In this document: positions 4,865-31,181 of the stretch, piece by piece | How positions within the stretch are numbered: the first letter of the stretch is position 1 | Layout: each line of letters begins with the position of its first letter | The notes under the pieces: generated by a model | Told to the model about the DNA's origin: nothing | The model's input: the letters and a program-made list of their open reading frames with translations, nothing else | The model's database searches: none | Program-made: the position numbers and the translations under genes | NCBI RefSeq assembly: GCF_000341395.1 | Contig: NC_020304.1 | Span: 120,001-152,000 of the forward strand | Direction: 5' to 3' | DNA from: Desulfocapsa sulfexigens DSM 10523 | Lineage (GTDB): Bacteria; Desulfobacterota; Desulfobulbia; Desulfobulbales; Desulfocapsaceae | Length of the DNA stretch: 32,000 bases

Positions 4865-4940
4865 GGCGGCGTAGCCAAGCGGCTAAGGCACTGGTCTGCA
4901 AAACCATGATTCAGCGGTTCAAATCCGCTCGCCGCCTCCA
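4865..4940 (+). tRNA. tRNA-Cys (anticodon GCA), with encoded CCA
   Basis: Manual cloverleaf fold. The acceptor stem GGCGGCG (4865-4871) pairs with CGCCGCC (4930-4936). The anticodon stem/loop is CTGGT-CTGCAAA-ACCAT, with U33 and GCA at 4898-4900. The T arm is AGCGG-TTCAAAT-CCGCT. The discriminator is U (4937) and CCA is at 4938-4940. Total length is 76 nt. Confidence 0.9.
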
Positions 4941-9320: not shown

Positions 9321-10307
9321 ATGAAGATAGGATTGACTTTTGATTTACGCTCCGCTTACCTGGAGATGGGATTCTCTGAGCTTGAAACAGCAGAATTCGA
9401 TCGTGACGACACTATTACAGCCATTGAAAATGCGCTGACCACACTGGGTCACAAATGTGAGCGAATCGGTCATGCCAGACAGCTTATGCAGGCCCTTACG
9501 GAGGGAAAACGCTGGGATCTGGTTTTTAATATCGCTGAAGGGATGTACGGCATAGGCCGTGAGGCCCAGATTCCGGCAATTTTGGATGTTTTCAATATTC
9601 CATATACTTTTTCGGATCCACTGGTCATGAGCCTGACTCTTCACAAGGGCATGACCAAACGGGTACTGCGGGATGCAAAAGTTGCCGTGAGTGATTTTCT
9701 GGTTGCTGAAAAGGGGTCTGAAGCTGCAGCAATATCCTTCGGAGGTCCATGGTTCATCAAACCAGTTGCCGAAGGAACGGGAAAGGGAATTGATCCCACC
9801 TCCATCGTCAGAGATAAAGCGGAGCTGCCGGGAGCCGTCGACCATTTGATAGAAAAGTTTAAGCAGCCTGTAATCATTGAACCCTACCTGCCCGGTCGGG
9901 AGTTCACCGTTGGTATAGTAGGAACGGGAAACGTGGCAAAAGTTCTGGGAACCATCGAGGTTGTCCTGCTACAGAACGCTGAGGAAGGTGTCTATTCCTA
10001 TGTCAACAAGGAGGAATGCGAAGAACGGGTGGAGTATCGGCTGGTTCACGGCAGTAAGGATCCCGTTGTCAAGGAGGCTGAAAACACAGCCCTTGAGGCC
10101 TGGCGTGTCCTTGGCTGCAGGGACGGAGGACGCGCGGATCTGCGCTGCAATGCAAACGGAAAACCGCTGTTTATGGAGGTCAACCCTCTTGCCGGTATTC
10201 ATCCGCAACATTCGGATCTTCCCATTCTCTGTACAATGCAAAACATTGATTACCTGAGTCTTGTGGAAATGATACTCACCTCAGCCTCCGCCAGGGTTAC
10301 ACTATGA
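9321..10307 (+). CDS. ATP-grasp ligase, D-alanine--D-alanine ligase family (substrates unknown)
   Basis: 328 aa. Ddl-like motifs are WFIKPVAEGTGKGI, IIEPYLPGREFTVGIVG and GRADLRCNANGKPLFMEVNPLAGI. The stop overlaps the next start (ATGA at 10304-10307). Confidence 0.85.
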   Translation: MKIGLTFDLRSAYLEMGFSELETAEFDRDDTITAIENALTTLGHKCERIGHARQLMQALTEGKRWDLVFNIAEGMYGIGREAQIPAILDVFNIPYTFSDPLVMSLTLHKGMTKRVLRDAKVAVSDFLVAEKGSEAAAISFGGPWFIKPVAEGTGKGIDPTSIVRDKAELPGAVDHLIEKFKQPVIIEPYLPGREFTVGIVGTGNVAKVLGTIEVVLLQNAEEGVYSYVNKEECEERVEYRLVHGSKDPVVKEAENTALEAWRVLGCRDGGRADLRCNANGKPLFMEVNPLAGIHPQHSDLPILCTMQNIDYLSLVEMILTSASARVTL

Positions 10308-11305
10308 ACTTTGCCGTTGTTCATAATTCCCTGGAAGCAAGTGACAGGCCGGATGCGATGGATGTGCTGACGCAGGTGGAGGCAGTAAAAAAAGCACTGA
10401 TCCAGCTTGGGCACCGGGTAAAGATTCTGGACTGTTCTCTGAATCTGGAGAAAATCAGTTGTGATCTCAAAGAGACGAAGACGGAACTGGTATTCAATCT
10501 GGTAGAATCCCTTGGAGGGCATGGTCGTCTGATTCATCTTTTCCCTGCACTGCTTGAGGTTTTACATCTTCCCTGTACAGGATCTTCAGCAGGAGCCATA
10601 TCCCTAAGCTCCAACAAAACTGAGGCCAAGAATTTACTGCGCAGTGCTGGCCTTCCCACCCCTGACTGGGCAGAACTTTTATCAAGTGGTGAAAAAAAAA
10701 TTAGCGGCAGCATTACGATGGATGCCACCTGGATCATAAAATCCCTATGGGAACATGCCTCACTGGGAATGAATGCAGACTCTCTGGTGCAACCCTCCAC
10801 GACAGATGAACTTTTCTCGCTCATGAATACCAAAAAGGACAGTCTGGGTGGTGCCTGCTTTGCCGAGCACTTTATTGACGGCCGGGAATTCAATATCTCC
10901 ATTCTTGCCGGAGAAAATGGCCCGGAAGTACTGCCTCCTGCCGAGATCCTCTTTGACAATTTCACCTCGGAGATGGCCAGGATTGTTGACTATAAGGCCA
11001 AGTGGGACGAATCATCCTTTGCCTACCAGCACACTCCGCGCAGCTTTGATTTCAGCTCTAAAGACAGAGTGATCCTTGAAAATCTAAAGGAGATCTCCCG
11101 GCAATGCTGGTTTCTTTTCAGGCTGAACGGCTATGCCCGGGTCGACTTCCGGGTCGACCCTGAAGGTAAACCCTGGATACTTGAGGTAAATGCCAACCCA
11201 TGTCTCTCACCGGATGCGGGGTTTTCCGCAGCACTGGCACGGGCCGGAATATCCTTCAGTGAAGCAATCCACCGAATTGTAGCAGATGTCCCTGTGACAG
11301 TTTGA
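10304..11305 (+). CDS. ATP-grasp ligase, D-alanine--D-alanine ligase family, paralogue (substrates unknown)
   Basis: 333 aa. Motifs are WIIKSLWEHASLGM, AEHFIDGREFNISILAG and YARVDFRVDPEGKPWILEVNANPCLSPDAG. It is clearly distinct from, but homologous to, the upstream gene. Confidence 0.85.
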   Translation: MNFAVVHNSLEASDRPDAMDVLTQVEAVKKALIQLGHRVKILDCSLNLEKISCDLKETKTELVFNLVESLGGHGRLIHLFPALLEVLHLPCTGSSAGAISLSSNKTEAKNLLRSAGLPTPDWAELLSSGEKKISGSITMDATWIIKSLWEHASLGMNADSLVQPSTTDELFSLMNTKKDSLGGACFAEHFIDGREFNISILAGENGPEVLPPAEILFDNFTSEMARIVDYKAKWDESSFAYQHTPRSFDFSSKDRVILENLKEISRQCWFLFRLNGYARVDFRVDPEGKPWILEVNANPCLSPDAGFSAALARAGISFSEAIHRIVADVPVTV

Positions 11306-11319
11306 AAGGAGTAATATAA

Positions 11320-13578
11320 ATGTTACGCGTACGCCGCATCTACGATGATGCACTGCCAGTCAACAAAGAGGAACTGCGTCAGGTAAAGGAAATCCTGCGT
11401 TCCAGATTCAGTGTTACCGATGAAAAGGAGATTGAATCCATAGGAGAAAAACTGCGAAATCCTTTCAAACAGCGATTCCGTACCATTCTCTTTGTGGCCG
11501 AAAGTGTGAAGGAGCGTGTGGATGGTTTTGCAATCCTGCTCCATGAACCCTTACTCTCGTTCACCTATCTTGACTGGATTGCCATAACGGCCAAGCGTGC
11601 AAGCTCGGGTATTGGCAGTGTGCTCTACGAACGGGTACGGCAGGAATCTGCGGCCCTGAAGGTGAAAGGTCTTTTCTTTGAATGTTTACCGGATTCTGAA
11701 ACCTTCTGTTCTGAACCGGAAATACTTCAGGAAAATAGTGCCAGACTCCGTTTTTATGAACAATACGGTGCCCGTCCCATCGTCAATACGGCCTACGAAA
11801 CCCCCATCAACCCGGATGACAGTTGTGCCCCGTTCCTGGTTTATGACGGTCTCGAGAACAAAAAACCACCCTCAAAGACCTTTGTCCGTAAGGCTGTGCG
11901 TGCTGTACTGGAACGAAAATACAGTGATATATGCTCGCCCGAGTATGTGGATACCGTTGTTTCCTCATTCAATGATGACCCGGTGCAACTTCGTCCATTT
12001 CTCTATGTGAAACCCGAAGTTGCCAGCAACACAGTGGAAAGCAGAAGTACAGAACAGATTGCTGTAGTGGTGAATGACCGTCACGACATTCACCACATCA
12101 ATGACAAGGGATACGTGGAGTCTCCGGTACGTGTCCGGTCAATCCTCAAGGAACTGGACAAAAGTGGATTATTTGTCCAGATAAAACCACGCCACTATGC
12201 CAACCATCATCTCCATCCGGTACACACTTCGGATCTGGTTGGATATCTGAAAAATGCCTGTGCAGACATGCCGGAGGGCAAGTCCCTCTATCCTTACATC
12301 TTCCCCATCCGCAATAAGATGCGACCGCCAAAGGAAAAATCTGTACTTGCCGGATATTACTGTATCGACACGTTCACGCCCATTAACAGAAATGCCTATC
12401 CCGCTGCCCGTCGAGCGGTTGACTGTGCCCTGACTGCAGCAGATGAAGTGCTTAATGGACGAAGAATAGCCTACGCTCTGGTCAGACCTCCAGGCCATCA
12501 CGCTGAAAGTGGCGCTTTTGGAGGATTCTGCTATTTCAACAACAGTGCAGTCGCCGCCCACTACCTGAGCGGATATGGCAGAACCGTAGTGCTTGACATC
12601 GACTATCATCACGGCAACGGTACCCAGGAGATTTTTTACCGCCGCGATGATGTTCTGACCATCTCCATCCACGGTCATCCAAGCTTCGCCTATCCCTATT
12701 TCAGTGGATTTGAAGAAGAAAAAGGTGAAGGCGAAGGCGAGGGTTTCAATCTCAACATCCCCCTTCCTGAATCGGTGGATGGGGTAAAATATCGCAGGGC
12801 GTTGCAGAAAGTTCTGGAAAGGGTCGAGGCTTTTAATCCAGCCTTTCTTGTCGTGGCCTTAGGCCTTGATCCTGCCAAAGGCGACCCGACAGGTACCTGG
12901 AGTCTGCTGGCAAAAGATTTTCAGGAAAACGGTAAAATGATAGGAGCTCTTGGGTTGCCGACCATCGTTATCCAGGAGGGCGGATACAAAACGCGAACCC
13001 TTGGTATCAACGCCATGCGGTTTTTCAAGGGTCTCAGCCTTGCCATTCAGCGATGGGCCGATTCACGCCATCCGGTGAAAAGCAAAATTCAAGGCATTGC
13101 CTACAGATACGAAGTCGAGGAGGCTGATCTGGAACGAGTAGCCAAACTTGCTTCCAGAACAGGCTTCTTCTCTGCGGAGGAAGTGGATGTAGCTGTGGAA
13201 CTGGTGCAGGAGAGACTGGAAAAAGGAGACGCCAGTGGCTATAATTTCATCATAGCAGAACATTACGGTCGCCTTGTCTCCTACACCTGTTATGGCGCAA
13301 TCCCCTGCACCCAGAGCGGACATGATCTCTACTGGATCGTTGTACATCCCGATTATCAGGGAAGAGGCGTTGGTAAAAGCATCCTCAAGGAAACCGAACA
13401 TGCCATCAGAAGTGGCGGCGGCGAGCGGATATACGCAGACACATCCCAACGACTGCAGTACGCCAGCACACGTGCCTTTTACGAAAACAACGGTTACCTC
13501 CAGGTGAGCCTGTTACCCGACTTCTATGGTCCCGATGATGGCAAGGTAGTCTACTGCAAAAATCTGCTGAAACAATAG
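11320..13578 (+). CDS. Tri-domain fusion: GNAT-like domain / HDAC-family (arginase-deacetylase fold) amidohydrolase / GNAT acetyltransferase
   Basis: 752 aa, with an AAAGGAG RBS. The middle domain carries the full HDAC/acetylpolyamine-amidohydrolase catalytic set: RPPGHHA, LDIDYHHGNGTQ, GEGEGEGFNLNIPLP, VVALGLDPAKGDP and IQEGGY. The C-terminal domain has the canonical GNAT motif A, IVVHPDYQGRGVGKSIL...FYENNGY. The N-terminal ~230 aa have a weaker GNAT-like motif (WIAITAKRASSGIGSVLYERV). Confidence 0.88.
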   Translation: MLRVRRIYDDALPVNKEELRQVKEILRSRFSVTDEKEIESIGEKLRNPFKQRFRTILFVAESVKERVDGFAILLHEPLLSFTYLDWIAITAKRASSGIGSVLYERVRQESAALKVKGLFFECLPDSETFCSEPEILQENSARLRFYEQYGARPIVNTAYETPINPDDSCAPFLVYDGLENKKPPSKTFVRKAVRAVLERKYSDICSPEYVDTVVSSFNDDPVQLRPFLYVKPEVASNTVESRSTEQIAVVVNDRHDIHHINDKGYVESPVRVRSILKELDKSGLFVQIKPRHYANHHLHPVHTSDLVGYLKNACADMPEGKSLYPYIFPIRNKMRPPKEKSVLAGYYCIDTFTPINRNAYPAARRAVDCALTAADEVLNGRRIAYALVRPPGHHAESGAFGGFCYFNNSAVAAHYLSGYGRTVVLDIDYHHGNGTQEIFYRRDDVLTISIHGHPSFAYPYFSGFEEEKGEGEGEGFNLNIPLPESVDGVKYRRALQKVLERVEAFNPAFLVVALGLDPAKGDPTGTWSLLAKDFQENGKMIGALGLPTIVIQEGGYKTRTLGINAMRFFKGLSLAIQRWADSRHPVKSKIQGIAYRYEVEEADLERVAKLASRTGFFSAEEVDVAVELVQERLEKGDASGYNFIIAEHYGRLVSYTCYGAIPCTQSGHDLYWIVVHPDYQGRGVGKSILKETEHAIRSGGGERIYADTSQRLQYASTRAFYENNGYLQVSLLPDFYGPDDGKVVYCKNLLKQ

Positions 13579-13756
13579 GCGAAGGGGATATGGTTGTCCC
13601 CAGGCTACCATACCTCCTGACCATATAATTATTGCCAGTGTTTTTTGAATCAGGTAGGGTCATGTCAGGTAAACATGTATTTTCATGGAGTTTCAATCCG
13701 TTGTAAGGATACCTGTACTCAATCCTTCTTCAACTCTCAACACGAGGAAAAGTCTG

Positions 13757-15187
13757 ATGGAAACATTCAGGACATATGACCCTGAGGATTATTACGACGA
13801 ATTAATCGACGACACCGGCAAACCCCGGCCTGGGGTTCAGTTACTGGTGGATAAGATTGAATCACTACCCGAAGGTGACCTGGCCATGCGCCAGAGAGAA
13901 GCGGAGGCCCTGCTCCTCAAAATGGGCATCACCTTCAATGTCTACGGCCGCGATGAGGGCACGGAAAAGATATTTCCCTTTGATATTATTCCCCGCATTG
14001 TTTCCGGCAGCGACTGGCAGCAGATAGAGAACGGCCTGAAACAGCGGATCTTTGCCCTGAATGAATTCCTCCAGGACATTTACAACGGCAAAAAGATCCT
14101 GAAGGATAAAATAATCCCTGAAGATCTTATACTCAGCAGCCGCACCTATCGCAAAGAATGTGAGGGCTTCACCCCTCCCCGCGGCATATGGTGCCATGTA
14201 ACGGGTACGGATCTGGTACGAGGCCGCAACGGAGAATTCTACGTACTGGAAGACAATCTCCGCTGCCCCTCGGGCGTCTCCTATGTCCTTGAAAACCGCC
14301 AGGTACTAAAACGGACATTCCCCCAGGTGTTTGAAGCCTCTCATGTGCGACCGGTGGACGACTATCCCACCAAACTCCTCGATATGCTTGAGTACCTGGC
14401 TCCAGACCACGTGCAATCACCCACCATTGGTGTTCTGACTCCCGGCATCTATAACAGCGCCTATTTCGAGCACTCTTTTCTCTCCCAGCAGATGGGAATA
14501 GAACTAGTGGAAGGCCGGGATCTTGTTGTCTCAGATGGATTTGTCCATATGTTGACCACCAAAGGCCTCAAACGTGTTGATGTCCTTTATCGTCGCATCG
14601 ATGATGATTTCATCGACCCGGATGTCTTTCGTCCCGATTCCATGCTTGGTGTCAAGGGGCTCATTGAAGTCTATAAAGCTGGTCGTATCGCCATGGCCAA
14701 TGCACCCGGAACTGGTATTGCCGACGACAAGGTGATTTACGCCTTCGTCCCCGAGATCATCAAGTATTACACAGGTGAGGATCCGATCCTGGCCAGTGTG
14801 CCCACCTATATCTGCGGCAACGATAAAGACCGCTCCTATGTTCTGGAACACCTCGATGAGCTGGTGGTCAAGGCCGCCAACGAGTCCGGTGGCTACGGCA
14901 TGCTGGTTGGCCCCCATTCAACCAGGGCAGAGCAGGCTGAGTTCGCCAAAAAAATAGTGGCCGAACCCCGTAACTACATGGCCCAACCCACCATTTCACT
15001 CTCCCGGGTACCTACCATTGTTGGCGACCGCATCGAAGGTCGCCATGTTGATCTGCGCCCCTATGTGTTGTACGGAGAGGAAATTTATGTACAGCCCGGT
15101 GGCCTTACCCGGGTGGCTCTTACCAAAGGGTCTCTGGTTGTCAACTCCTCCCAGGGTGGTGGAAGCAAAGACACCTGGGTACTGTAG
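13757..15187 (+). CDS. Circularly permuted ATP-grasp protein (COG2308-type), apparently catalytically intact
   Basis: The ORF track starts it at 13685 with no RBS. An in-frame ATG at 13757 (METFRTYDPEDYYDELID...) is preceded by GAGGAAAAG and gives a 476-aa protein. Family-typical blocks are YVLEDNLRCPSGVSYVLENR, VLTPGIYNSAYFEHSFL, VVKAANESGGYGMLVGP and LVVNSSQGGGSKDTWVL. Confidence 0.87.
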   Translation: METFRTYDPEDYYDELIDDTGKPRPGVQLLVDKIESLPEGDLAMRQREAEALLLKMGITFNVYGRDEGTEKIFPFDIIPRIVSGSDWQQIENGLKQRIFALNEFLQDIYNGKKILKDKIIPEDLILSSRTYRKECEGFTPPRGIWCHVTGTDLVRGRNGEFYVLEDNLRCPSGVSYVLENRQVLKRTFPQVFEASHVRPVDDYPTKLLDMLEYLAPDHVQSPTIGVLTPGIYNSAYFEHSFLSQQMGIELVEGRDLVVSDGFVHMLTTKGLKRVDVLYRRIDDDFIDPDVFRPDSMLGVKGLIEVYKAGRIAMANAPGTGIADDKVIYAFVPEIIKYYTGEDPILASVPTYICGNDKDRSYVLEHLDELVVKAANESGGYGMLVGPHSTRAEQAEFAKKIVAEPRNYMAQPTISLSRVPTIVGDRIEGRHVDLRPYVLYGEEIYVQPGGLTRVALTKGSLVVNSSQGGGSKDTWVL

Positions 15188-15213
15188 ACGATTTATATAG
15201 AGGAGAAATAAAG

Positions 15214-16212
15214 ATGCTTAGCCGTGTAGCCAACTCAATTTACTGGATGTGTCGATATATCGAACGGGCGGAAAATGTAGCCCGCTTTATCAGTGTCAAC
15301 CTCAACCTGTTACTCGATATGCCCTCAGAAAAGGGCAAACACTGGGAACCGCTGGTACTGACAACAGGTGATCAGGAACTGTTCGAAAAAAAGTATCAGA
15401 ACTATACCAAAGAGGCGGTAATCGAATTCCTTGCCTTTGACCGGAGTTACCCCAATTCCATTATCAGCTCCCTTGCGGGAGCAAGGGAAAACGGTCGGTC
15501 CATCCGTGAAATCATCTCTTCTGAAATGTGGGAACATTTAAACAATTTCTATCTGGAACTGACCGATGTAAAAAGCCAGACCATGGCTCTTGAGGATCCG
15601 CACCGCTTTTTCAAAATCATTCAGATGCGCAGTCACCTGTTCACCGGACTGCTGGACTCGACCATGAGCCATGGGGAAGCCTGGAACTTTGCCCGCATCG
15701 GTATGATGCTGGAACGGGCAGACAAAACCTCCAGAATCCTTGACGTCAAATACTTTATGCTGTTGCCGCACCCGGATCTGGTGAACAGTCCGATAGATAA
15801 CATTCAGTGGACATCGGTGCTCAAATCTGCCAGTGCTTTTGAAATGTATCGTAAGGAACATCATCGGATAACCCCGCATAAGGTGGCAAGCTTCCTGATT
15901 TTTGACAGCCAGTTTCCTCGTTCCATCCGCCATTGTATTTCCAAGGCCGATATCTGTCTGCATAGGATTGCCGGCTCACCGGAGGGGTCCGCAAGCAATC
16001 TTGCCGAGAAAAAGCTGGGCCGTCTCAAAGCTGATCTTGAATACACTGACATTGATGAAGTGGTCAAATCTGGTATGCATGAGTACCTGGACGATCTGCA
16101 GAGTCGGATCAACCAGATTGATGAAGTCATCGGAACCACATTCTTCAATCTCAGGCCCCTGATCGATGTATCAACAAACGACCAGCAGCAGTCCACGACC
16201 ACCAACAACTGA
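15214..16212 (+). CDS. Alpha-E domain protein (COG2307-type)
   Basis: 332 aa, with an AGGAG RBS. The N-terminus MLSRVANSIYWMCRYIERAENVARF is the hallmark opening of alpha-E domain proteins. The rest appears all-helical, including GEAWNFARIGMMLERADKTSRILDVKY. Confidence 0.87.
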   Translation: MLSRVANSIYWMCRYIERAENVARFISVNLNLLLDMPSEKGKHWEPLVLTTGDQELFEKKYQNYTKEAVIEFLAFDRSYPNSIISSLAGARENGRSIREIISSEMWEHLNNFYLELTDVKSQTMALEDPHRFFKIIQMRSHLFTGLLDSTMSHGEAWNFARIGMMLERADKTSRILDVKYFMLLPHPDLVNSPIDNIQWTSVLKSASAFEMYRKEHHRITPHKVASFLIFDSQFPRSIRHCISKADICLHRIAGSPEGSASNLAEKKLGRLKADLEYTDIDEVVKSGMHEYLDDLQSRINQIDEVIGTTFFNLRPLIDVSTNDQQQSTTTNN

Positions 16213-16290
16213 ATGAAAAAGTAATCAATAAACATGGGGCCGCGATATACCCGGCAACCATGCTCTTGATTCACAATAAAAGGAATACTC

Positions 16291-19200
16291 ATGGGAATCC
16301 ATGTTGCCCTGAACCACAAGACCTCATACCATTACGACAAGCGTATCACCCTCTCTCCTCAGATTGTCCGTCTGCGCCCCGCTCCTCACTGCCGGACCCC
16401 CATTCTGAGCTACTCCATGACGGTAACTCCTGAAAAACATTTTATCAACTGGCAGCAGGATCCATTCAGTAACTACCTGGGCCGCCTGGTATTTCCCGAC
16501 AAAACAGACATTTTTGAGGTGGAGATCGATCTGGTGGCGGAGATGATTATCATCAACCCCTTTGATTATTTCCTGGAGCCTGACGCCGAATCATTTCCCT
16601 TTATTTATGAACCGGCTCTCAAACTGGACCTTGCTCCCTATCTGGCCAGAGAAAAGGCTGGGAAAAAGCTCCAGGAGTACATAAACAAGATAGAGCTCAA
16701 ACCAAGACAGACCATCGATTTCCTGGTGGATCTGAACATGAAGCTGAGTCATGATATCAGCTATCTTATCCGCATGGAACCGAACGTGCAAAGCTGTGAA
16801 AAGACCCTCACTCTTGGCAGCGGCTCATGCAGGGATTCTGCCTGGTTGCTGGTCAATATCCTGCGTCATCTCGGTCTGGCTGCCCGTTTCGTTTCCGGTT
16901 ACCTGATCCAGTTGAAACAGGATATCAAATCCCTGGACGGTCCATCGGGAACAGAAGTTGACTTCACCGATCTCCATGCCTGGACAGAGGTTTACATTCC
17001 AGGGGCTGGTTGGGTGGGTATGGATCCAACCTCCGGACTTTTCGCCGGAGAAGGACACATTCCCCTGGCCTGCTCGCCTGAACCACAGAGTGCAGCTCCC
17101 ATCACCGGAGGCCTCGAATTATGTGAAGTTGACTTCAGTCACACCATGAGTGTGACAAGAATTCACGAAGCACCCCGCTCCACCCGCCCCTACCCCGAAG
17201 AAGTCTGGAGAGAGATCGTTGAATTGGGAGAACAGGTTGATCAGAAACTGACCGATGGCGATGTCCGTCTGACCATGGGAGGGGAACCCACATTTGTTTC
17301 AATCGACGATATGGATGGCGCTCAATGGAACACCGACGCCCTTGGAGAAGAAAAACTGGAGCTTTCCGGAATTCTCATTAAGGAACTGCGAAAGAAATGG
17401 GCTCCCGGAGGATTTCTCCATCATGGCCAGGGCAAATGGTATCCGGGAGAGCCCCTGCCCCGCTGGGCCATGGGCTGCTATTGGCGAAAAGACGGTAAAC
17501 CTGTCTGGAAGGATGACCAGTGGCTGGCCGATGCCTCCAAAGATTATGGTTTTGATGCTGGAGATGCCAAACTTTTCATCGAGACACTGGCAGACAATCT
17601 GAGGGTGAGTCAGCGCTATATACGGGAAAGTTACGAAGACATCTTCTATTACCTGTACAAAGAGCAACGGTTGCCGGTAAATGTGGATCCTGCAGATCCA
17701 AAGCTTGACAGTGCTCTGGAACGCGCTCATATGGTACGAGCCTTTCAGCGAGGACTGGGATCAGTGGTCGGCTACGTCCTCCCTCTGCAGCATGGCTCCT
17801 GGAAGAGTGGCCCCTGGCCTTTCCGCGATGGACGGATGTTCCTTGTACCCGGTGATTCTCCTGCCGGCCTGCGCCTCCCCCTGGCCTCTCTGCCATGGGT
17901 AGCCAAAGAGGACATCCAGGAGGGGCACCCCCTGGATCCAATGATAGACAGAGAGCCCTTACCCGAACTGCATGAAAATCAGAAAGTTGTGGAAGGACAG
18001 GCTGTAGCAGTGACAGGTGACAATGTTCATATTCAGCCTGAACCCTATGCTGACCCGGAGCCCGTCAAGGGAGAATCTGCTGCCTGGCTGGTACGCACAG
18101 CCCTCTGCGTGCAGCCCCGGGAAGGACGCCTCTATATATTTATGCCACCGGTGGAATCTCTGGAGGGATACCTTGAGCTGGTGTCCATCGTCGAAGCAAC
18201 TGCCGCACAGACTCAGTTGCCGGTAATCATCGAAGGATATACACCGCCCTTTGACCCGCGCCTCCAGAATCTGAAAATCACCCCGGATCCCGGAGTCATT
18301 GAAGTGAATATCCAGCCCATGCACAGCTGGCAGGAGCTGGTTGAATGTACCACCACCCTTTACGACACTGCCCGAGAGGCACGTCTGGGTACTGAAAAGT
18401 TCATGATTGACGGCCGACACACCGGCACCGGTGGTGGTAATCATATCGTCATCGGTGGATCCACCCCTGGAGACAGCCCGTTTCTACGAAGGCCGGATCT
18501 GCTTCGCAGTTTTGTCACCTTCTGGAATAATCATCCGTCCCTCTCTTTTCTTTTTTCCGGACTCTTTATCGGCCCCACCAGCCAGCAGCCGCGAATTGAT
18601 GAGGCCCGCCATGACAGCCTCTATGAACTGGAAATCGCCTTTGCTGAACTGGACAGACAGACAGGTTCGGATCAGCCCTGCCCTCCCTGGCTGGTGGATC
18701 GAATTTTCCGCCACCTGCTGGTGGACGTTACCGGTAACACCCACCGGGCCGAATTCTGTATCGATAAGCTCTATTCACCGGACAGTGCTAGCGGAAGACT
18801 GGGCCTCCTTGAATTTCGCGCCTTTGAGATGCCTCCCCACGCCCGTATGAGCCTCGCCCAGCAGCTGCTGTTGCGTAGCTTTGTTGCCTGGTTCTGGGAG
18901 ACGCCCTATCGTCAGAGTCTGGTGCACTGGGGAACACGGCTCCATGATCGCTTTATGCTGCCCCAGCCGGTACGGGATGATTTTGCTGATGTCCTGAATA
19001 TTCTGAACCGGGCTGGCTTCCCTGTCTCGATGGATTTTTTCCATCCTCATTTCGAATTTCGCTTTCCCATTTACGGCAAAGTAACGGTTCAGGGCATGGA
19101 GATTGAACTGCGCCAGGCTCTTGAGCCCTGGCACGTATTGGGCGAAGAACCAGGCGGTGGTGGCACTGTCCGCTACGTTGACGGCTCACTGGAGAGGCTC

Positions 19201-19611
19201 CAGGTCAAAGTCTCCGGTATGACAGGAGAACGCTATATTATCACCTGCAACGGTCGTCGAGTTCCTCTGCAGCCAACCACAGTTGAAGGCGTATTTGTTG
19301 CCGGTATCCGCTTCCGTGCCGGAAAACCTCCATCCTGCCTCCATCCTACCATTGATGTTCATGCTCCCCTCACCATTGATCTCTTCGACACCTGGTCCAA
19401 CAGGTCCGTGGGTGGCTGTACCTATCATGTGGAGCACCCAGGCGGACGAAACTCTGAAACACTTTCTGTCAACTCCTATGAGGCGGAAGGACGGCGTAAC
19501 GCTCGTTTCGTTCCCAACCGGCACAGTCCCGTTCGCCCGACAGCTATTCCTGCAGATGAAATGAACCCATCTTTTCCATATACTCTTGATTTGCGCCGCC
19601 ACATCGGATAA
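16291..19611 (+). CDS. Large transglutaminase-like cysteine peptidase fused to a DUF2126-type predicted (circularly permuted COOH-NH2 ligase) amidoligase domain
   Basis: 1106 aa. The N-terminal Bact_transglu_N-like region reads HVALNHKTSYHYDKRITLSPQIVRLRP. The transglutaminase core has an intact Cys-His-Asp triad (GSGSCRDSAWLLV, FTDLHAWTEVYIPGAGWVGMDPTSG). The ~800-aa C-terminal extension matches my recollection of the COG4196/DUF2126 family. Confidence 0.88.
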   Translation: MGIHVALNHKTSYHYDKRITLSPQIVRLRPAPHCRTPILSYSMTVTPEKHFINWQQDPFSNYLGRLVFPDKTDIFEVEIDLVAEMIIINPFDYFLEPDAESFPFIYEPALKLDLAPYLAREKAGKKLQEYINKIELKPRQTIDFLVDLNMKLSHDISYLIRMEPNVQSCEKTLTLGSGSCRDSAWLLVNILRHLGLAARFVSGYLIQLKQDIKSLDGPSGTEVDFTDLHAWTEVYIPGAGWVGMDPTSGLFAGEGHIPLACSPEPQSAAPITGGLELCEVDFSHTMSVTRIHEAPRSTRPYPEEVWREIVELGEQVDQKLTDGDVRLTMGGEPTFVSIDDMDGAQWNTDALGEEKLELSGILIKELRKKWAPGGFLHHGQGKWYPGEPLPRWAMGCYWRKDGKPVWKDDQWLADASKDYGFDAGDAKLFIETLADNLRVSQRYIRESYEDIFYYLYKEQRLPVNVDPADPKLDSALERAHMVRAFQRGLGSVVGYVLPLQHGSWKSGPWPFRDGRMFLVPGDSPAGLRLPLASLPWVAKEDIQEGHPLDPMIDREPLPELHENQKVVEGQAVAVTGDNVHIQPEPYADPEPVKGESAAWLVRTALCVQPREGRLYIFMPPVESLEGYLELVSIVEATAAQTQLPVIIEGYTPPFDPRLQNLKITPDPGVIEVNIQPMHSWQELVECTTTLYDTAREARLGTEKFMIDGRHTGTGGGNHIVIGGSTPGDSPFLRRPDLLRSFVTFWNNHPSLSFLFSGLFIGPTSQQPRIDEARHDSLYELEIAFAELDRQTGSDQPCPPWLVDRIFRHLLVDVTGNTHRAEFCIDKLYSPDSASGRLGLLEFRAFEMPPHARMSLAQQLLLRSFVAWFWETPYRQSLVHWGTRLHDRFMLPQPVRDDFADVLNILNRAGFPVSMDFFHPHFEFRFPIYGKVTVQGMEIELRQALEPWHVLGEEPGGGGTVRYVDGSLERLQVKVSGMTGERYIITCNGRRVPLQPTTVEGVFVAGIRFRAGKPPSCLHPTIDVHAPLTIDLFDTWSNRSVGGCTYHVEHPGGRNSETLSVNSYEAEGRRNARFVPNRHSPVRPTAIPADEMNPSFPYTLDLRRHIG

Positions 19612-19669
19612 CTATGCCAGATCAAACAAGGTGTACTACTATTAAAGAAACAACGAGACCTCCAGCTGT

Positions 19670-22198
19670 ATGAGCACTGCAGACCTGAATAATCCCGCGT
19701 GCCCATGGCCTGCTGCATCTGTGTCCCTGTTTGACGCGGTTACGCTGCCACCTCAGGCCTATTGCGAAGCCTTTTCCTCCCCGGCAAGTGCCCGTGAACA
19801 CTGGCGCCCCCTGCTCTCCGCATTAGATGCCAGGGGAAAACAGGAGCTCTCCCAACTCCAGGATCGCGTCAAACGCAAGTGCCACGAACATGGTGCAACC
19901 TTCAACCCTTTTGACGACCCCACCGAGCAGGAAACCCCCTGGGCTCTGGATATAATCCCGCTTCCCTTTGCCGCAGAGGAATGGGCAAATCTCGAAACAG
20001 GACTTATCCAACGGGCCCGCCTCCTGGATCAGATCCTCGCAGACACCTACGGGGCACAAAACCTGTTGAAGAATGGACAGATGCCAGCCGAACTGGTCTT
20101 TGCCAATCCGCATTTCCTGCACCAGTGTCATGGTATTCGTCCGGCCGCTGGCAAGTTCCTGACCTATTACGCGGCAGACCTTTACAGAGGAGTCGACGGA
20201 TGCTTCCGGGTGCTGCGAGATTACGGTGCAAACCCCATCGGACTCGGTTATGCCCTTGAGAACAGGATCGTCAGTTCACATTTTCTTTCAGACACCTATC
20301 ACAACAATCAGATCCACAGGCTGGCTCCCTTCTTCCAAACCTTTCACCGCAATCTTATCCAACGTGCCGCCCTGCACCGTGAAGATCACGGTATCGTGCT
20401 GCTCTCTCCCGGCCCAGACAGTCTCATCTACTTTGAGCATGCCCTGCTCTCACGTTACCTTGGGTACCCTCTGGTGGAAGGCCAGGATCTGACCATGCGG
20501 AACGGAAAGCTGTTTCTCAAAAAACTGGACGGCCTCGAGGAGGTGGAAGCCATCTTCCGCCACACCGGAGACAACAACAGCGATCCCTTCGCCCTACGGC
20601 GTAAATCAGCAGACGGTGTGGCAGGACTTATCCAGGTTTCCCGTGAGAATAACGTCGATATCGTCAACCCCATCGGCAGTGGATTTATTGATACACCCGT
20701 TCTTCCTGTCTTTCTGCCCAATTTTTGTCGTGAACTACTGAAAGAAGAGCTACTCCTGAAAAGTCATCCTGCCTGGTGGTGTGGGACCCCGGATGGGCGC
20801 AATCATGTTATGGCAAATATGAACACCTTGAATGTCACTTCTGCCATGACCCGATCGACAACTGCTACACGTCCGAGCGACCTGATGAATAATATTGCCG
20901 CCAGCCCCCACGCCTTTATGGCACAGGAACAGGTTTATCCTTCAATGGTTCCCGTCTGGGACAACGGCCGTGTCAATTCCCATTACTCTCTTTTACGGGT
21001 ATTTGCCTGTGCAACGGATCAGGGATTTGCTTTCATGCCTGGAGGGCTGGCCATCACCGCCGCGAATGTAAAGACACTCACCAGTGACCGCCCGGAGCGA
21101 CAGCAAAGCAAGGACGTCTGGGTGTTGTCTGACAAACCGGTTGAGCCTGTGAGCCTTATGAGCAGTCTCCAACAGGTGAGTGAGTTCAGTCGCAGCAGTA
21201 ATCTTCCGAGCCGGGTGGCTGATCATCTGCTCTGGCTGGGACGCTATCTGGAGCGGGCCGAAGGGCTGACACGACTTCTTCTCTCCGTCTTTCGCCGGCT
21301 CTCAGGAGAATTTTCCCCACAAGATATCCCCGAATTACCGTTTCTCCTTAATCTTCTCCGTGAAAAAGATATCATTCCCAAGGCTCCCACTGACAGCAGC
21401 GGTATCCCTCTCTATCGTGAACTCCTCGCCCAACTGAATGGTGCCATGTATCAAAGCGATAAGAATCAGAGTGTTGCCACGGTTCTGAAACAGGTGCAGA
21501 AGGCAGCTCGGCATGTACGGGATCGCCTCTCTCCTGATTCCTGGCGGGTAATCAACAGACTGGAGACCTTTCCGCTGAATTCAGGCAGTGATCCTCTGGA
21601 AGTTCTTGATGACACCCTGTTCAATCTGAGCGCCTTCAGCGGACTGGCTATGGAAAGTATGACCCGTGGGCTGGGATGGCGCTTCATGGACATAGGCCGT
21701 CGCCTGGAACGGGCCATGAATCAGGCCTCCCTTGTACGCATCGGCCTCCCTCAGGTATGCAGAGCATCGGGAACTGCCCTGGAAGCGATGCTTGAGGTGT
21801 CAGACAGTATTATGACATACCGGGCGCGCTACCAGATGGCCTTTCAACTGGCTCCCGTACTGGATTTACTGCTCATGGATGAAACCAATCCTAAATCCCT
21901 GGCTTTTCAGTTCAGCCAGCTGGCTGCACACGTGGAGCATCTTCCCCGGCAGAGCGAACGCAGCTTTTCCAGTCCGGAGGAGCGCATTGTCCTTGAAATA
22001 CTAACCACCGTACGTCTGCTCGATCTCACGGGGATGCTCTGCACAACAAAAGAGAGTAAAAAAAGTTCACTTGCAGCATCTCTTGAATCCATGGAGACCC
22101 TTCTTAAGGAGTTTGCTCAGCAGGTCAGCGCTCACTACCTGAGCCGGGTTCCGACCACCCCCCATTTCTCCATCATACCCGGCAACCGTAAGCCATGA
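19670..22198 (+). CDS. Fusion of a circularly permuted ATP-grasp-like domain (nucleotide-binding motifs degenerate) and an alpha-E domain
   Basis: 842 aa. The N-terminal half is co-linear with the 13757 gene (LDIIPLPF.., RVLRDYGANPIGLGYALENR, LLSPGPDSLIYFEHALL, QSKDVWVL). The C-terminal half starts with the alpha-E hallmark SRVADHLLWLGRYLERAEGLTRLL. The stop overlaps the next start (ATGA at 22195-22198). Confidence 0.87.
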   Translation: MSTADLNNPACPWPAASVSLFDAVTLPPQAYCEAFSSPASAREHWRPLLSALDARGKQELSQLQDRVKRKCHEHGATFNPFDDPTEQETPWALDIIPLPFAAEEWANLETGLIQRARLLDQILADTYGAQNLLKNGQMPAELVFANPHFLHQCHGIRPAAGKFLTYYAADLYRGVDGCFRVLRDYGANPIGLGYALENRIVSSHFLSDTYHNNQIHRLAPFFQTFHRNLIQRAALHREDHGIVLLSPGPDSLIYFEHALLSRYLGYPLVEGQDLTMRNGKLFLKKLDGLEEVEAIFRHTGDNNSDPFALRRKSADGVAGLIQVSRENNVDIVNPIGSGFIDTPVLPVFLPNFCRELLKEELLLKSHPAWWCGTPDGRNHVMANMNTLNVTSAMTRSTTATRPSDLMNNIAASPHAFMAQEQVYPSMVPVWDNGRVNSHYSLLRVFACATDQGFAFMPGGLAITAANVKTLTSDRPERQQSKDVWVLSDKPVEPVSLMSSLQQVSEFSRSSNLPSRVADHLLWLGRYLERAEGLTRLLLSVFRRLSGEFSPQDIPELPFLLNLLREKDIIPKAPTDSSGIPLYRELLAQLNGAMYQSDKNQSVATVLKQVQKAARHVRDRLSPDSWRVINRLETFPLNSGSDPLEVLDDTLFNLSAFSGLAMESMTRGLGWRFMDIGRRLERAMNQASLVRIGLPQVCRASGTALEAMLEVSDSIMTYRARYQMAFQLAPVLDLLLMDETNPKSLAFQFSQLAAHVEHLPRQSERSFSSPEERIVLEILTTVRLLDLTGMLCTTKESKKSSLAASLESMETLLKEFAQQVSAHYLSRVPTTPHFSIIPGNRKP

Positions 22199-23067
22199 GA
22201 TACCGCGTAAGCCATAAAACAACCTACCGCTATTCGGAACCTGCCTCCCTTTCTCAAAACGAGGTATTTCTCCATCCCCGTGAAATTGAAACTCAACGGG
22301 TAATCGAAAGCAGACTGGCCATCGATCCAAAACCGCAATACCAGCACCGTCGTACAGATTACTTTGGCAATATCGCGCAGGTATTCATGGTACAGCATCC
22401 CCACAACGAGCTGACCATGACCGCAACCAGCATTGTGGAAACAGCCCTTCCCGTCACGCCATTAAGCACTCCTCCCTGGGAAAGCGTCGTCCAGCGACTG
22501 GCTGCCCCCGTGCGCCAGTTACCGGACCTTGAAGCCTACCAGTTCGTCTTTGCCAGCCCTCTGATCAGCGTCGCTCCCGGGGTTATGGAATATGCCAGGC
22601 CTTCCTTCCCGCCGGGTACTCCCGTACTGGACGGAGCCATGAACCTGATGGGACGAATATTTAAAGAATTCAGCTACGACACCTCGGCCACCACCGTGGA
22701 TACCACCGTAGAACAACTGCTGGCAGAACGAAAAGGGGTCTGTCAGGATTTTGCCCATTTCGCCATCAGCTGTCTACGATCCATGGGACTGGCGGCACGC
22801 TATGTGAGCGGCTACCTGGAAACCATGCCACCACCGGGTAAACCCAAGATGATCGGAGCCGATGAATCCCACGCCTGGCTCTCTCTCTACATTCCGGACA
22901 CAGGCTGGGTAGACCTGGACCCCACGAACAACATTATTCCAGGTGAAAATCATATCGTTCTTGCCTGGGGGCGGGATTATGGTGATGTCACCCCCGTGAA
23001 AGGAGTGGTAATGGGGGGCGGAATTCACACCCTTTCCCTGATGGTGGATGTTGCCGTACACTCCTGA
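22195..23067 (+). CDS. Transglutaminase-like cysteine peptidase (COG1305-type)
   Basis: 290 aa. The Bact_transglu_N-like start is MRYRVSHKTTYRYSEPASLSQNEVFLHPRE. The catalytic triad context is KGVCQDFAHFAISCLRSMGLAARYVSGY and ESHAWLSLYIPDTGWVDLDPTN. Confidence 0.9.
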   Translation: MRYRVSHKTTYRYSEPASLSQNEVFLHPREIETQRVIESRLAIDPKPQYQHRRTDYFGNIAQVFMVQHPHNELTMTATSIVETALPVTPLSTPPWESVVQRLAAPVRQLPDLEAYQFVFASPLISVAPGVMEYARPSFPPGTPVLDGAMNLMGRIFKEFSYDTSATTVDTTVEQLLAERKGVCQDFAHFAISCLRSMGLAARYVSGYLETMPPPGKPKMIGADESHAWLSLYIPDTGWVDLDPTNNIIPGENHIVLAWGRDYGDVTPVKGVVMGGGIHTLSLMVDVAVHS

Positions 23068-23123: not shown

Positions 23124-25745
23124 TCATTCGAGAGTCACTTGTCCATCAAGAACACATCTGACAGTTTCTGCCACATCTCTCTCACTAAGCGGCTTCAGGA
23201 TATATTTCTTTATGCCCAGGTCAAATGCCTCTTCCGGTGAAAGTGACTCTGTATATCCCGTACAGAGGATTATAGGCAGGTCAGGCCGAATTTGCAGCAC
23301 CGCCCGTGAGAGTTCATCACCGGTCAGTCCCGGCATTGTCTGGTCAGTAATGAGGAGATCAAAGGATTGCGGTTCAGCACGAAAACGTTCCAACGCCTTT
23401 GAACCACTGGTTTCTTTTGTTACGGTATATCCTAAACCTGTTAACAGATCTCCCAATATCTCGACAAGATCCCATTCATCATCCACGACAAGTATGCGCT
23501 CATCCCCCCTGGGAAGTGCACCTGCCTCTATTGTATTCTGTGCCACCTCAGTGTCTTCAGTTACCCGAGGCAGGAATACGTGAAAGACTGTGCCTTCACC
23601 CGGCTCACTGCCAACGGTTATAAAGCCCTTGCATTTCTTAACAATTCCATGGGTTACCGCCAGGCCAAGCCCCGTCCCACTGCCCTGTTTCTTAGTCGTG
23701 AAATAGGGTTCAAAAATTCTCTCCATTGTGGCCTCATCCATACCCTCACCGCTATCTCTTACCGATAGGACGACAAAAGAACCGGCCGCTATACCGGATT
23801 TCCCGACAAGTTGTTCCGGCCCCATCTCTATCCGGCTTAGACCTACTTCCAGACTTCCGTTCTTTTTACCGATGGCATGGGAGGCATTTGTGCAGAGGTT
23901 AATCACGACCTGATGAATATTGGTGGAATCAGCAAGAACCAGACCGCAATTTGGATCAATACGTGTCACTATATCGATAGTTGTTGGCAAAGAGGAGCGC
24001 AGCATCTTCAAAGACTCATTCACAATCAGATCAATGCGAAGGGGTTCTCTTTTGTGACTGTTTGAGCGGCTGAAGGTGAGTATCTGTTTGACAAGCTCTG
24101 CGGCCCTGTTTCCAGCATCTATCATCCTGCCCAGATATCTTTCCTCGTCACTCCCCACGGGCATTCTGGGTTTGATAATCTCTGCATAGCCGAGAATAGC
24201 AGCAAGGATATTATTGAAATCATGGGCAACCCCGCCGGCAAGGGTGCCGATGGCTTCCATCTTCTGCGCCTGGGTGAGTTCTTTCTCCAGCTTAATTTTC
24301 TCAGTAATATCCTGGGCAACATTTACGATATACTGAACCTCATGGTCTGGGTCCCGAAGAGGAGCAGAAGTCACCTGAAAAACTTTTTGCAAATGCTCAT
24401 GTTCAATGATGGCGTGATGTTTCTGATAATCGGTAAACGATGCCATGCCCGGACAGTCCCTGCATGGTTTTGACTTGCACTTAAACAAGTTGTGGCAGCA
24501 GGTTCCAAGTAACTCCTGCGGGGTCAACCCAAAACAGTCAAATGCTGCCCGATTTGCCCGGACAATTTTCATATTTCTGTCTTGAAGCGTTATAATATCA
24601 GGGATAGCATCAAATGTTTTTTCCCATTCATCTTTACTTCGCTGCAACTGTTTTGTTCGCTCGATAACCTGCTCTTCAAGAGAACTGTTCAGCTGTGCCA
24701 GTATCTCTCTGCGACTGTACTGCAGGTAAAATATGAAAAGAACCAGAGCAACCAGAAACAGGCTCAAACCCAAAACAATTCTATAATATTTTGCATTCTG
24801 AACAAAAACAGGAGAATGACTTCTAACAGTCAAAAAAGCCACCATCTCTTTTGTTACCGGGTTTAAAACAGGGATTGCGGTAAAGACCATATCTATGGAA
24901 GGATCATATAATGATGTGATTTTATGCGTATGGACATTGGCATGAATTGCGGCAACTATCTCCCCGCTCGGTTCCAGATCCTTCATCTTCCTGCTGGATA
25001 CTTTTTTTAGCACTGCCAACACATTATTGTCGTACATAAACCCTTTATGATGAGAACTTTTATAGAGCGTCTTGACTTCTCCCGGAAAAACCTTTCTCGT
25101 CGCAATATCCTCTCTAATATAAAAATTACTCAATACGTCATACTGTTTCATCAGAGTGGAGGTGAGGACCTCGGGACTGAAGGATATTTCAAAACTGCCC
25201 AGATGACTTTTGTCAACTGCTGTGATGGGAAAAACAAAGCGATAACCACCAGCGGCCCGCCCAATCTCAAAACCATCAATAGCGAGATGATTCTTATTCA
25301 TATACACGACTGTCTCACGAATGTTTGTCAGGTCATCTCCAAACTTTATCGGTCGATGAACACGCAAAAAAGACTCGTTATTCAACAGGTGAAAATGAAG
25401 TTGTTTCACCTTCATTTCTTTATTCAAATAGAGGTAACGGTGCTGAATTCTGGAGCGCAGTTCCTCTCGTAAAAGATTTTTCTGTTCCTCATCGGCCTGG
25501 GACAGTTTCTGATAGAAATCATGAATCTCAAATCTTTCCATCAGGCTGAAGCGAATATGTTCCGCCAGCTGCTTATGCTGAGCATAGATAGTATTGTAAG
25601 CGTCTTGATAGTTTTTTGAAATGAGCTGCAAATGCTGCTGTTGGCTCTGCTCTCTTGTCCTGTCCAATAAAAAGTACAACAGTGCTGCCAGGACGGCGAA
25701 AACAAGCAATAAAACAGCCTTGATGCGTATATTCTTGATTTTCAT
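23124..25745 (-). CDS. Hybrid sensor histidine kinase/response regulator (TM, Cache-like periplasmic domain, TM, Cys-rich PAS, HisKA, HATPase_c, REC)
   Basis: 873 aa. It has two hydrophobic segments (AVLLLVFAVLAALLYFLL and IVLGLSLFLVALVLFIFYL). These flank a ~290-aa domain with the Cache-type motif LHFHLLNNESFLRVHRPIKFGDDL. The H-box is GGVAHDFNNIL, the N-box NLCTNASHAI, and the G-boxes DSGEGM and GSGTGLGLAV. The receiver domain reads RILVVDDEWD...LLITDQTMPGLTG...PIILCTGY...K. Confidence 0.92.
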   Translation of the reverse strand: MKIKNIRIKAVLLLVFAVLAALLYFLLDRTREQSQQQHLQLISKNYQDAYNTIYAQHKQLAEHIRFSLMERFEIHDFYQKLSQADEEQKNLLREELRSRIQHRYLYLNKEMKVKQLHFHLLNNESFLRVHRPIKFGDDLTNIRETVVYMNKNHLAIDGFEIGRAAGGYRFVFPITAVDKSHLGSFEISFSPEVLTSTLMKQYDVLSNFYIREDIATRKVFPGEVKTLYKSSHHKGFMYDNNVLAVLKKVSSRKMKDLEPSGEIVAAIHANVHTHKITSLYDPSIDMVFTAIPVLNPVTKEMVAFLTVRSHSPVFVQNAKYYRIVLGLSLFLVALVLFIFYLQYSRREILAQLNSSLEEQVIERTKQLQRSKDEWEKTFDAIPDIITLQDRNMKIVRANRAAFDCFGLTPQELLGTCCHNLFKCKSKPCRDCPGMASFTDYQKHHAIIEHEHLQKVFQVTSAPLRDPDHEVQYIVNVAQDITEKIKLEKELTQAQKMEAIGTLAGGVAHDFNNILAAILGYAEIIKPRMPVGSDEERYLGRMIDAGNRAAELVKQILTFSRSNSHKREPLRIDLIVNESLKMLRSSLPTTIDIVTRIDPNCGLVLADSTNIHQVVINLCTNASHAIGKKNGSLEVGLSRIEMGPEQLVGKSGIAAGSFVVLSVRDSGEGMDEATMERIFEPYFTTKKQGSGTGLGLAVTHGIVKKCKGFITVGSEPGEGTVFHVFLPRVTEDTEVAQNTIEAGALPRGDERILVVDDEWDLVEILGDLLTGLGYTVTKETSGSKALERFRAEPQSFDLLITDQTMPGLTGDELSRAVLQIRPDLPIILCTGYTESLSPEEAFDLGIKKYILKPLSERDVAETVRCVLDGQVTLE

Positions 25746-28637: not shown

Positions 28638-28647
28638 AACACCTCGC

Positions 28648-31166: not shown

Positions 31167-31181
31167 ATCATTCTTTTATAT

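Follow-up and report, generated by a model that had tools for sequence, protein, structure and literature searches.

Does the run of five co-directional genes encoding circularly permuted ATP-grasp, Alpha-E, transglutaminase-like (TGL) and DUF2126 domains in Desulfocapsa sulfexigens DSM 10523 represent an unusual merger of two gene sets, or is it a regular form of a bacterial system already described, and what could such an assembly do? The five open reading frames (ORFs) lie on the + strand at 13757-23067 of the window, a term used here for the whole 32,000-nucleotide stretch analysed, along which all positions are numbered. Judged from gene order, composition and domain content, genes 1-5 form one operon-like unit, an ordinary member of a widespread bacterial system, in which genes 1-2 and genes 3-5 stand for two modules that diverged long ago. 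The locus is an already known kind of system in a typical arrangement, which is normal in its clade and common elsewhere.

Gene 1 (13757-15187, + strand, 476 amino acids (aa)) encodes a split circularly permuted ATP-grasp ligase (Pfam CP_ATPgrasp_2, 6.9e-167; CP_ATPgrasp_1, 1.6e-142), matching PDB entry 3n6x at 1.5e-164, and gene 2 (15214-16212, +, 332 aa) a stand-alone Alpha-E protein (Alpha-E, 9e-104). The product of gene 3 (16291-19611, +, 1106 aa), 100% identical to UWK_00112, consists of a TGL-like N-terminal domain fused to DUF2126 (Bact_transglu_N, 4e-23; Transglut_core, 5e-17; DUF2126, 1328 bits over the full length). It is followed by gene 4 (19670-22198, +, 842 aa), a fusion of an ATP-grasp-like part to Alpha-E (CP_ATPgrasp_2, 4.8e-116; Alpha-E, 9.7e-70), and by gene 5 (22195-23067, +, 290 aa), a small TGL protein (Bact_transglu_N, 1e-26; Transglut_core, 5e-21). 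These ORF coordinates and profile scores confirm the five genes, lengths and domain families that had been named in the original prediction for this DNA. None of the five proteins matched an NCBIfam model.

Spacings between consecutive genes are 26, 78, 58 and -4 bp, the last 4 bp of gene 4 being shared with the start of gene 5, and gene 5 is followed by a convergent gene. An alternative in-frame ATG for gene 1 at 13685 would give a protein of 500 aa; we favour the start at 13757 because it is preceded by a GAGGA Shine-Dalgarno sequence and gives a length in agreement with the 476-aa homologues and the 474-aa chain of 3n6x. Upstream of gene 1 lies an intergenic region of 178 bp (13579-13756, +), the presumed promoter site, in which no Rfam family (riboswitch) was detected, and no sigma-70-like or terminator-like site was found on the + strand ahead of gene 1. 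The GC content at third codon positions (GC3) ranges from 0.56 to 0.60 in genes 1-5, against 0.46-0.54 in all flanking genes, with values of 0.46-0.52 in an upstream KamA/Ddl/Ddl/HDAC-GNAT module and 0.46-0.47 in the downstream kinases, both described below. The step begins at the gap before gene 1, and the compositional island matches the five-gene unit exactly; expression-driven codon bias and joint acquisition are possible causes.

To place this arrangement among other species, a DUF2126 alignment was scanned against one genome per GTDB species, and the best 80 of at least 600 matches were taken. The loci came from Desulfobacterota, Acidobacteriota, Verrucomicrobiota, Planctomycetes and Alpha-, Beta- and Gammaproteobacteria, and were 55-78% identical along all 1106 residues; their ORFs were classed by phmmer with the window domains as queries. 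In the following shorthand, G is the split ATP-grasp, E is Alpha-E, T the small TGL, TD the TGL-DUF2126 protein and GE the fused ATP-grasp-Alpha-E protein. The triad TD-GE-T was intact on one strand in 62 of the 67 loci of other species with enough downstream sequence, as it is in genes 3-5. In 18 of 65 informative loci (including L057, with an over-extended ORF), a split G-E pair directly preceded the triad in the same direction, which is the layout of the window; it was divergently upstream in 13 and downstream in 4, so that pair and triad were adjacent in some orientation in 35; in the other 30 the triad appeared alone, with no pair seen in the visible flanks. In most of the 18 same-strand loci, Alpha-E was followed by the large protein without an intervening small TGL. 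Among the 18, a small TGL preceded the ATP-grasp gene in two (L004, L006) and lay between in one (L018, Burkholderia, G-E-T-TD-GE-T), while four had a second terminal small TGL. The order of the window was identical in all ten Desulfobacterota loci examined (L001-L004, L006, L091-L094 and the window). In the delta proteobacterium NaphS2 (L091), a PIN-domain gene and a 65-aa ORF of toxin-antitoxin-like appearance (11770-12577) sit between the DUF2126 and the fused genes and so break up a triad that is otherwise invariant.

The original prediction had regarded the locus as a merged double copy served by a single small TGL, a special state whose co-occurrence could be checked. In the best 80 loci the five-gene order does recur, and its supposed rarity is not borne out, the layout being frequent in the same orientation, more so in any orientation, and uniform in the clade; moreover, a contiguous version has been published (PMC5491218). 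Since the window holds a typical copy, it leaves the general picture of the system unchanged. In about half of the sampled species the two triads are neighbours, and they merit study as one unit. The Pfam text for CP_ATPgrasp_1 also covers a system with all these components.

The two ATP-grasp proteins of the unit differ in the residues expected of a ligase, as seen in an alignment of 38 split and 69 fused domains, in which 66 columns are conserved in both paralogue families. Gene 1 carries the motif LVVK372AANESGGYGML (K372 codon at 14870-14872), whose VVK...SGGYGM we take to be the ATP-grasp lysine and Gly-rich phosphate loop. No other ATP-grasp of the locus has both lysine and Gly-rich loop, and gene 1 is predicted to be catalytically competent. 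In gene 4, the ATP-grasp-like part covers about residues 1-495 and Alpha-E about residues 512-824. The Gly-rich loop was missing in every fused protein inspected (18 of the 69, from several phyla), which agrees with the family-wide column statistics; the loop lysine position holds K in 48 of the 69 and R in 9. Desulfobacterota fused proteins are also devoid of the loop lysine (T390 in gene 4) and carry a further deletion. Gene 4 shows changes at residues that both families conserve (T285K, R298H, D300G, G327N, R438H, R462I and GG477-478RQ), with K, H, I and Q at four of these positions common to nine of nine clade sequences, whereas T-R-D-G-R-R-G-G is retained by the fused proteins of other phyla and by the split paralogue of the same operon. 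The ATP-grasp part of gene 4 is probably non-catalytic, and the fused ATP-grasp in general is best regarded as a subunit that probably does not catalyse. A metagenome scan with gene 4 returned a single locus, from the same species, so that only the 10 clade loci could serve to sample whether degeneration of the fused ATP-grasp goes along with an adjacent split pair. Alpha-E is intact in both proteins, deviating at 2 of 38 family-conserved columns in gene 4 and at 0 of 62 in gene 2; sequence and profile searches of the PDB gave no relative for Alpha-E. At 28% identity between the ATP-grasp parts of genes 1 and 4, and 20% between the Alpha-E parts of genes 2 and 4, the paralogues are by their divergence ancient and not the outcome of a recent duplication.

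Both TGL cores keep the Cys-His-Asp triad, as had been claimed. The residues could be located as C180/H229/D245 in gene 3 (codons at 16828-16830, 16975-16977 and 17023-17025) and C183/H226/D242 in gene 5, and the triad is invariant in 148 homologues of other species, comprising 83 of 83 TGL domains of large proteins and 65 of 65 small TGLs. Gene 5 matches PDB entry 3isr at 5e-12, and the TGL domains of genes 3 and 5 share 26% identity. A distance analysis of the TGL domains, directed at the question of which TGL belongs to the split pair, placed the three groups about equally distant from each other.

In gene 3 the TGL-like domain spans about residues 1-275 and DUF2126 residues 277-1102, a region of about 830 residues whose family counts 2,866 cluster representatives at E <= 1e-30. 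Homologues of gene 3 keep 55-62% identity across phyla. An AlphaFold2 model built with a diverse 20-sequence alignment reached a predicted local distance difference test (pLDDT) value of 85 and a predicted template modelling score (pTM) of 0.83; a shallow alignment of 35 sequences at 75-81% identity had earlier yielded a pLDDT of 56, and that model was discarded. In Foldseek comparisons of the model with the PDB, the N-terminal domain matched 3isr, a putative cysteine protease from Cytophaga (E 5e-14, target TM 0.73). A weak, consistent series of further matches comprised glutamine synthetases (9n4x, 4s17, 8oon and 7tf9), the gamma-glutamylmethylamide synthetase 9qur and the carboxylate-amine ligase YbdK (1r8g), with probabilities of 0.85-0.96, E-values of 0.03-0.1 and target TM of 0.28-0.38. 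Because the aligned residues of these matches were not shown, they are given to DUF2126 by elimination, and they probably stem from that part of the model. As far as a predicted fold allows, they support, without proving, the Pfam label of putative amidoligase for DUF2126. PafA and Dop were not among the top Foldseek matches of the model. The term DUF2126 was not met in the literature searched.

The same five families are present in Mycobacterium tuberculosis as two separate loci (Rv2566-Rv2567-Rv2569c and Rv2409c-Rv2411c), the arrangement in two triads that the original prediction had taken as usual, and stand merged in the window; Rv2569c is presumably the small TGL of the DUF2126 cluster there. 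Among described systems, the closest is the cluster I35_5080-5083 (BCAM1233-1236) of Burkholderia cenocepacia H111, which like the window carries both modules side by side (PMC5491218). It differs in that a small TGL lies between Alpha-E and the large protein, and in its dependence on sigma-54 and NtrC, no such promoter having been found in the window. The Anbu operon of Yersinia bercovieri and Pseudomonas putida (PP_2685-2688) begins with the same families in the same order as genes 1-2, whereas the window has neither Anbu nor a dedicated small TGL after Alpha-E, and has the TGL-DUF2126 gene instead. As originally claimed, an Anbu-type gene is lacking: no proteasome or Ntn-hydrolase (Anbu) domain was detected among the scanned window ORFs of at least 150 aa, the remaining unscanned ORFs overlapping assigned genes. 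GlnA and YbdK, of the GS/GCS2 fold, are compared with the unit on account of the weak structural matches of gene 3 that probably fall in DUF2126, and PafA and Dop of pupylation by analogy; DUF2126 is far larger, fused to a TGL domain and devoid of sequence similarity to solved structures. For the TTL ATP-grasp ligases with their tag-removing peptidases, the likeness is a published functional analogy only (PMC3495828), and these systems differ from that of the window in ATP-grasp clade, peptidase fold pairing and targets.

The window displays the hallmarks of the system, namely a circularly permuted ATP-grasp, adjoining or fused Alpha-E and TGL domains with an intact Cys-His-Asp triad. For this system, accounts that cite Iyer et al. 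2009 relay the prediction of a reversible peptide-tag or small-peptide ligase working with a TGL peptidase (PMC3495828, PMC5666114, PMC3597751), and Zhang and Aravind predicted that TGL domains reverse the peptide tags added by ATP-grasp enzymes (PMC3495828). The related operon includes the proteasome-like Anbu particle (PMC5666114), by which the system is tied to proteasome evolution. The ATP-grasp protein of the homologous operon in Y. bercovieri releases phosphate from ATP (PMC6376114); together with the K372 and Gly-rich loop motif of gene 1, this is the evidence that bears on the predicted amide-bond formation and TGL cleavage. Rv2411c and Rv2567 of M. tuberculosis make no GABA (gamma-aminobutyric acid)-trehalose (bioRxiv 10.64898/2026.04.15.718621). 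Rv2569c was reported as a cell-wall-associated protein-degrading protease that cleaves E-cadherin and was assigned by its authors to the YebA superfamily with a predicted cysteine-protease domain, its inhibitor profile being ill-suited to a cysteine enzyme (PMC11081392). The earlier statement that the function is unknown is correct, and few bacterial enzyme sets lacking a known substrate are as widespread and as strongly conserved as this one.

Regulation in other bacteria points to nitrogen limitation as the relevant condition. Expression of I35_5080-83 in B. cenocepacia was 6- to 9.4-fold lower in an ntrC mutant, the cluster being activated by NtrC and sigma-54 under nitrogen limitation (PMC5491218), and in P. 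putida, nitrogen limitation or growth on nitrate induces PP_2685-2688 (PMC3325844, PMC8050072). For Bradyrhizobium, a CP_ATPgrasp_1 gene is listed as preceded by a sigma-54 promoter (PMC13207237), and in marine metagenomes the abundance of the system co-varies with urea-metabolism domains (PMC3597751). In our own set, a urea ABC transporter together with ureDABCEFG ends 21-50 bp before the gene 1 orthologue, on the same strand, in Desulfosarcina ovata (L002, 1-7117) and in L094 (1-7250), which suggests that the urease operon is co-transcribed with the five-gene system in these Desulfosarcina-type genomes. Urease genes occurred in only three of 86 loci (L002, L037 and L094). PII was not found in the loci with an approximate E. 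coli GlnB sequence as query.

We lean, with modest confidence, towards a reading of the unit as an ATP-dependent amide ligase and thiol-dependent amidase/peptidase machine of two modules that serves nitrogen economy. Upon the architecture, which is observed, we infer the following chemistry and physiology. In the first module, the ATP-grasp of gene 1 together with the Alpha-E protein of gene 2 would activate a carboxylate as an acyl-phosphate and ligate an amine to it. In the second, DUF2126 of gene 3 would act as a COOH-NH2 ligase of the glutamine synthetase/YbdK type, providing a second ATP-dependent ligation, and gene 4, with its degenerate ATP-grasp and its Alpha-E, would be a non-catalytic partner or specificity subunit. 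The TGL domains at the N-terminus of gene 3 and in gene 5 might form thioesters and cleave, trim or transfer the amide or isopeptide groups made by the ligases, so that each module would have one real ligase, one Alpha-E and TGL peptidase capacity. A role in nitrogen economy, with induction when nitrogen is scarce, would fit the regulation in other bacteria and the neighbourhoods.

Several observations weigh against this proposal. No member of the system has a known substrate, product or phenotype, and the proteins of the Anbu operon did not co-purify (PMC6376114). The sigma-54 promoter pattern TGGCAC-N5-TTGCW was unmatched in 13579-13756 with up to two mismatches; its count across the window equals the chance expectation. 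Regulation in Desulfobacterota may differ, however, and the unit may be under nitrogen control all the same. Direct adjacency to urease concerns two of 86 loci, probably from related genomes, in addition to one case at about 9 kb, and clustering of neighbouring ORFs in 82 loci yielded no universal neighbour, only clade-specific housekeeping ones (ComEC, YgiQ-type radical SAM, DnaB, azurin and LysR). The assignment of DUF2126 to a glutamine synthetase/YbdK-like fold comes from the weak structural matches, sequence and profile searches of this region against the PDB having retrieved no relative. As for gene 4, its inactivity is deduced from motif loss and not from a ligand-bound structure, and it retains 54 of the 66 cross-family conserved residues, including E256, E270, D273 and N333; because of these shared residues and the intact Alpha-E half, it is called probably rather than certainly non-catalytic.

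Among the alternatives, the one that fares best replaces protein or peptide tags by small nitrogen metabolites, gamma-glutamyl or N-acyl amines such as acylated polyamines and lysine derivatives, which the system would scavenge or assimilate. We regard it as a serious but tentative possibility. The regulons that respond to nitrogen limitation agree with it, as do the neighbouring genes for urease and urea transport (PMC5491218, PMC3597751) and the structural matches themselves, all of them small-molecule ligases (glutamine synthetase, gamma-glutamylmethylamide synthetase and YbdK), and the 55-62% identity of gene 3 homologues across phyla is typical for a universal small substrate. On the other hand, a proteasome-like Anbu particle is part of the related operon (PMC5666114), most known enzymes with a TGL fold act on proteins or peptides, and the only biochemical report, that on Rv2569c, describes protein degradation, although with the inhibitor profile unlike that of a cysteine enzyme (PMC11081392).

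This alternative also draws on genes of the HDAC family (PF00850), which together with urease are recurring neighbours of the system. Of 11 Desulfobacterota/Desulfuromonadota loci, 4 have such a gene no more than 10 kb from the system, versus about 1 of 75 loci in other phyla; the chance expectation of about 1% per locus is a rough figure that assumes certain gene numbers and was not calculated statistically. They comprise, in the window, an HDAC-GNAT fusion (11320-13578, +); in a Geopsychrobacteraceae metagenome-assembled genome (L075, 8107-9855), a 55%-identical orthologue without GNAT directly upstream of the DUF2126 gene; in L092 (1205-2266), a 353-aa paralogue 3.3 kb upstream; and in L093 (14753-16075, - strand), a 440-aa paralogue immediately downstream that adjoins a hydantoinase A gene. 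An HDAC-family gene at 17067-18320 (-) of L027 is listed with the others near a DUF2126 system. These genes belong to three subfamilies with mutual identities of only about 35%. Their recurrence may reflect a functional link to N-acyl-amine amidohydrolysis. A more far-reaching proposal for Desulfobacterota, which we consider speculative and rather unlikely as a whole, would combine a fused ATP-grasp that is a true pseudo-enzyme, a split pair that is obligate in a five-protein machine, and HDAC amidohydrolases that are repeatedly recruited, pointing to N-acylated amines (acetyl-polyamine or acyl-lysine) as nitrogen-scavenging substrates.

It seems unlikely to us that the locus consists of two independent systems placed side by side, in which genes 1-2 would be the TGL-less remnant of an ATP-grasp/Alpha-E/TGL(/Anbu) operon and genes 3-5 would be self-sufficient. 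The 30 loci with the triad alone are what such independence predicts, the G-E-T-Anbu operon of P. putida is a separate locus (PMC3325844, PMC8050072), and the paralogues are as distant as stated above (20-28% identity). However, in the 35 loci where the modules are adjacent they appear in three orientations and in several phyla, which argues for selection rather than inherited synteny. Furthermore, most merged loci lack a TGL that belongs to the split pair itself, the order is constant in the clade, the five genes share a common GC3, and both modules of B. cenocepacia respond together to NtrC (PMC5491218).

Less probable still is a nine-gene pathway in which the two-module machine would cooperate with the four genes upstream in making or remodelling a beta-amino-acid peptide. 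These genes encode a KamA-family radical SAM aminomutase (7932-9236, +), two Ddl-like ATP-grasp ligases (9321-11305, +) and the HDAC-GNAT fusion already mentioned, a 752-aa protein with an N-terminal domain followed by HDAC and GNAT. They directly adjoin the unit in the same direction in the window and in the metagenome contig L090, which is 98% identical; a distance of 3.4 kb separates the module from a split G-E pair in L089, and the L075 protein, an orthologue of the N-terminal and HDAC part, stands directly upstream of a DUF2126 gene. Nevertheless, the four-gene module occurs with no TGL system nearby in Desulfococcus multivorans and three further distinct contexts (L083/84, L085, L086 and L087/88), among unrelated neighbours, and its closest relatives, at 80% identity, are likewise not adjoined by the system. 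No KamA or Ddl homologue was found in any of 82 DUF2126 loci, and the 178-bp gap and the GC3 step separate the two units. The fusion protein is conserved at 66-80% identity across many Desulfobacterota. Since the module exists elsewhere apart from the system, KamA and Ddl are missing from those 82 loci and GC3 changes between the two, KamA-Ddl-Ddl-HDAC/GNAT is, on this comparative evidence, a self-contained conserved module and a neighbour of the five-gene unit, not a demonstrated partner.

The original prediction had valued the upstream genes, described as beta-lysine and acetylation genes, as a clue to function. The KamA-family, Ddl-like and HDAC-GNAT genes are indeed present. The beta-lysine part is not established, because the KamA protein does not reach the equivalog cut-off of any of the lysine, glutamate and arginine 2,3-aminomutase models: it scores 475 with TIGR03820 against a cut-off of 525 and stays below in the glutamate and arginine models too, and among the NCBIfam models only the KamA-family subfamily model is passed. 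As context, the upstream genes lose most of their value by belonging to a separate module; of that clue, the HDAC recurrence survives as a weak lead. A di- or tripeptide with a beta-amino acid, subject to an acetylation or deacetylation step, is a plausible guess for the product of the module.

D. sulfexigens is a free-living sulfur disproportionator, which counts against a role in anti-phage defence or virulence. Such a defence system or secreted virulence protease system, to which the report of Rv2569c as a cell-wall-associated protease cleaving E-cadherin (PMC11081392) might point, is hardly credible: the defence reading was rejected for want of any PADLOC match for the five proteins, nor did HDAC-GNAT give one, the locus shows vertical conservation, has housekeeping-type neighbours and lacks the features of an island, and gene 5 showed no evident signal peptide when its sequence was read by eye.

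Other genes of the window complete the description of the locus. Downstream of the unit, tandem hybrid histidine kinase/response-regulator genes (23124-27898, -) of 873 and 717 aa, with dCache_3/PAS and PAS sensors, converge on the operon and have an overall GC of 0.45; in Desulfopila (L001, 3985-6177) a kinase related to these is encoded upstream of the system, and several other loci contain kinase homologues. They are followed at 28089-31991 (-) by genes for a PEMT/ICMT-like methyltransferase, a flavin amine oxidase-like protein, a radical SAM/SPASM protein and a further radical SAM protein. On the other side, ahead of the KamA gene, a hexapeptide-repeat transferase gene overlaps that of a pyridoxal phosphate-dependent (PALP) enzyme at 5875-7760 (+), with the look of a cysE/cysK-type pair, and a tRNA gene (Rfam, 63 bits) precedes this pair at 4865-4937 (+).

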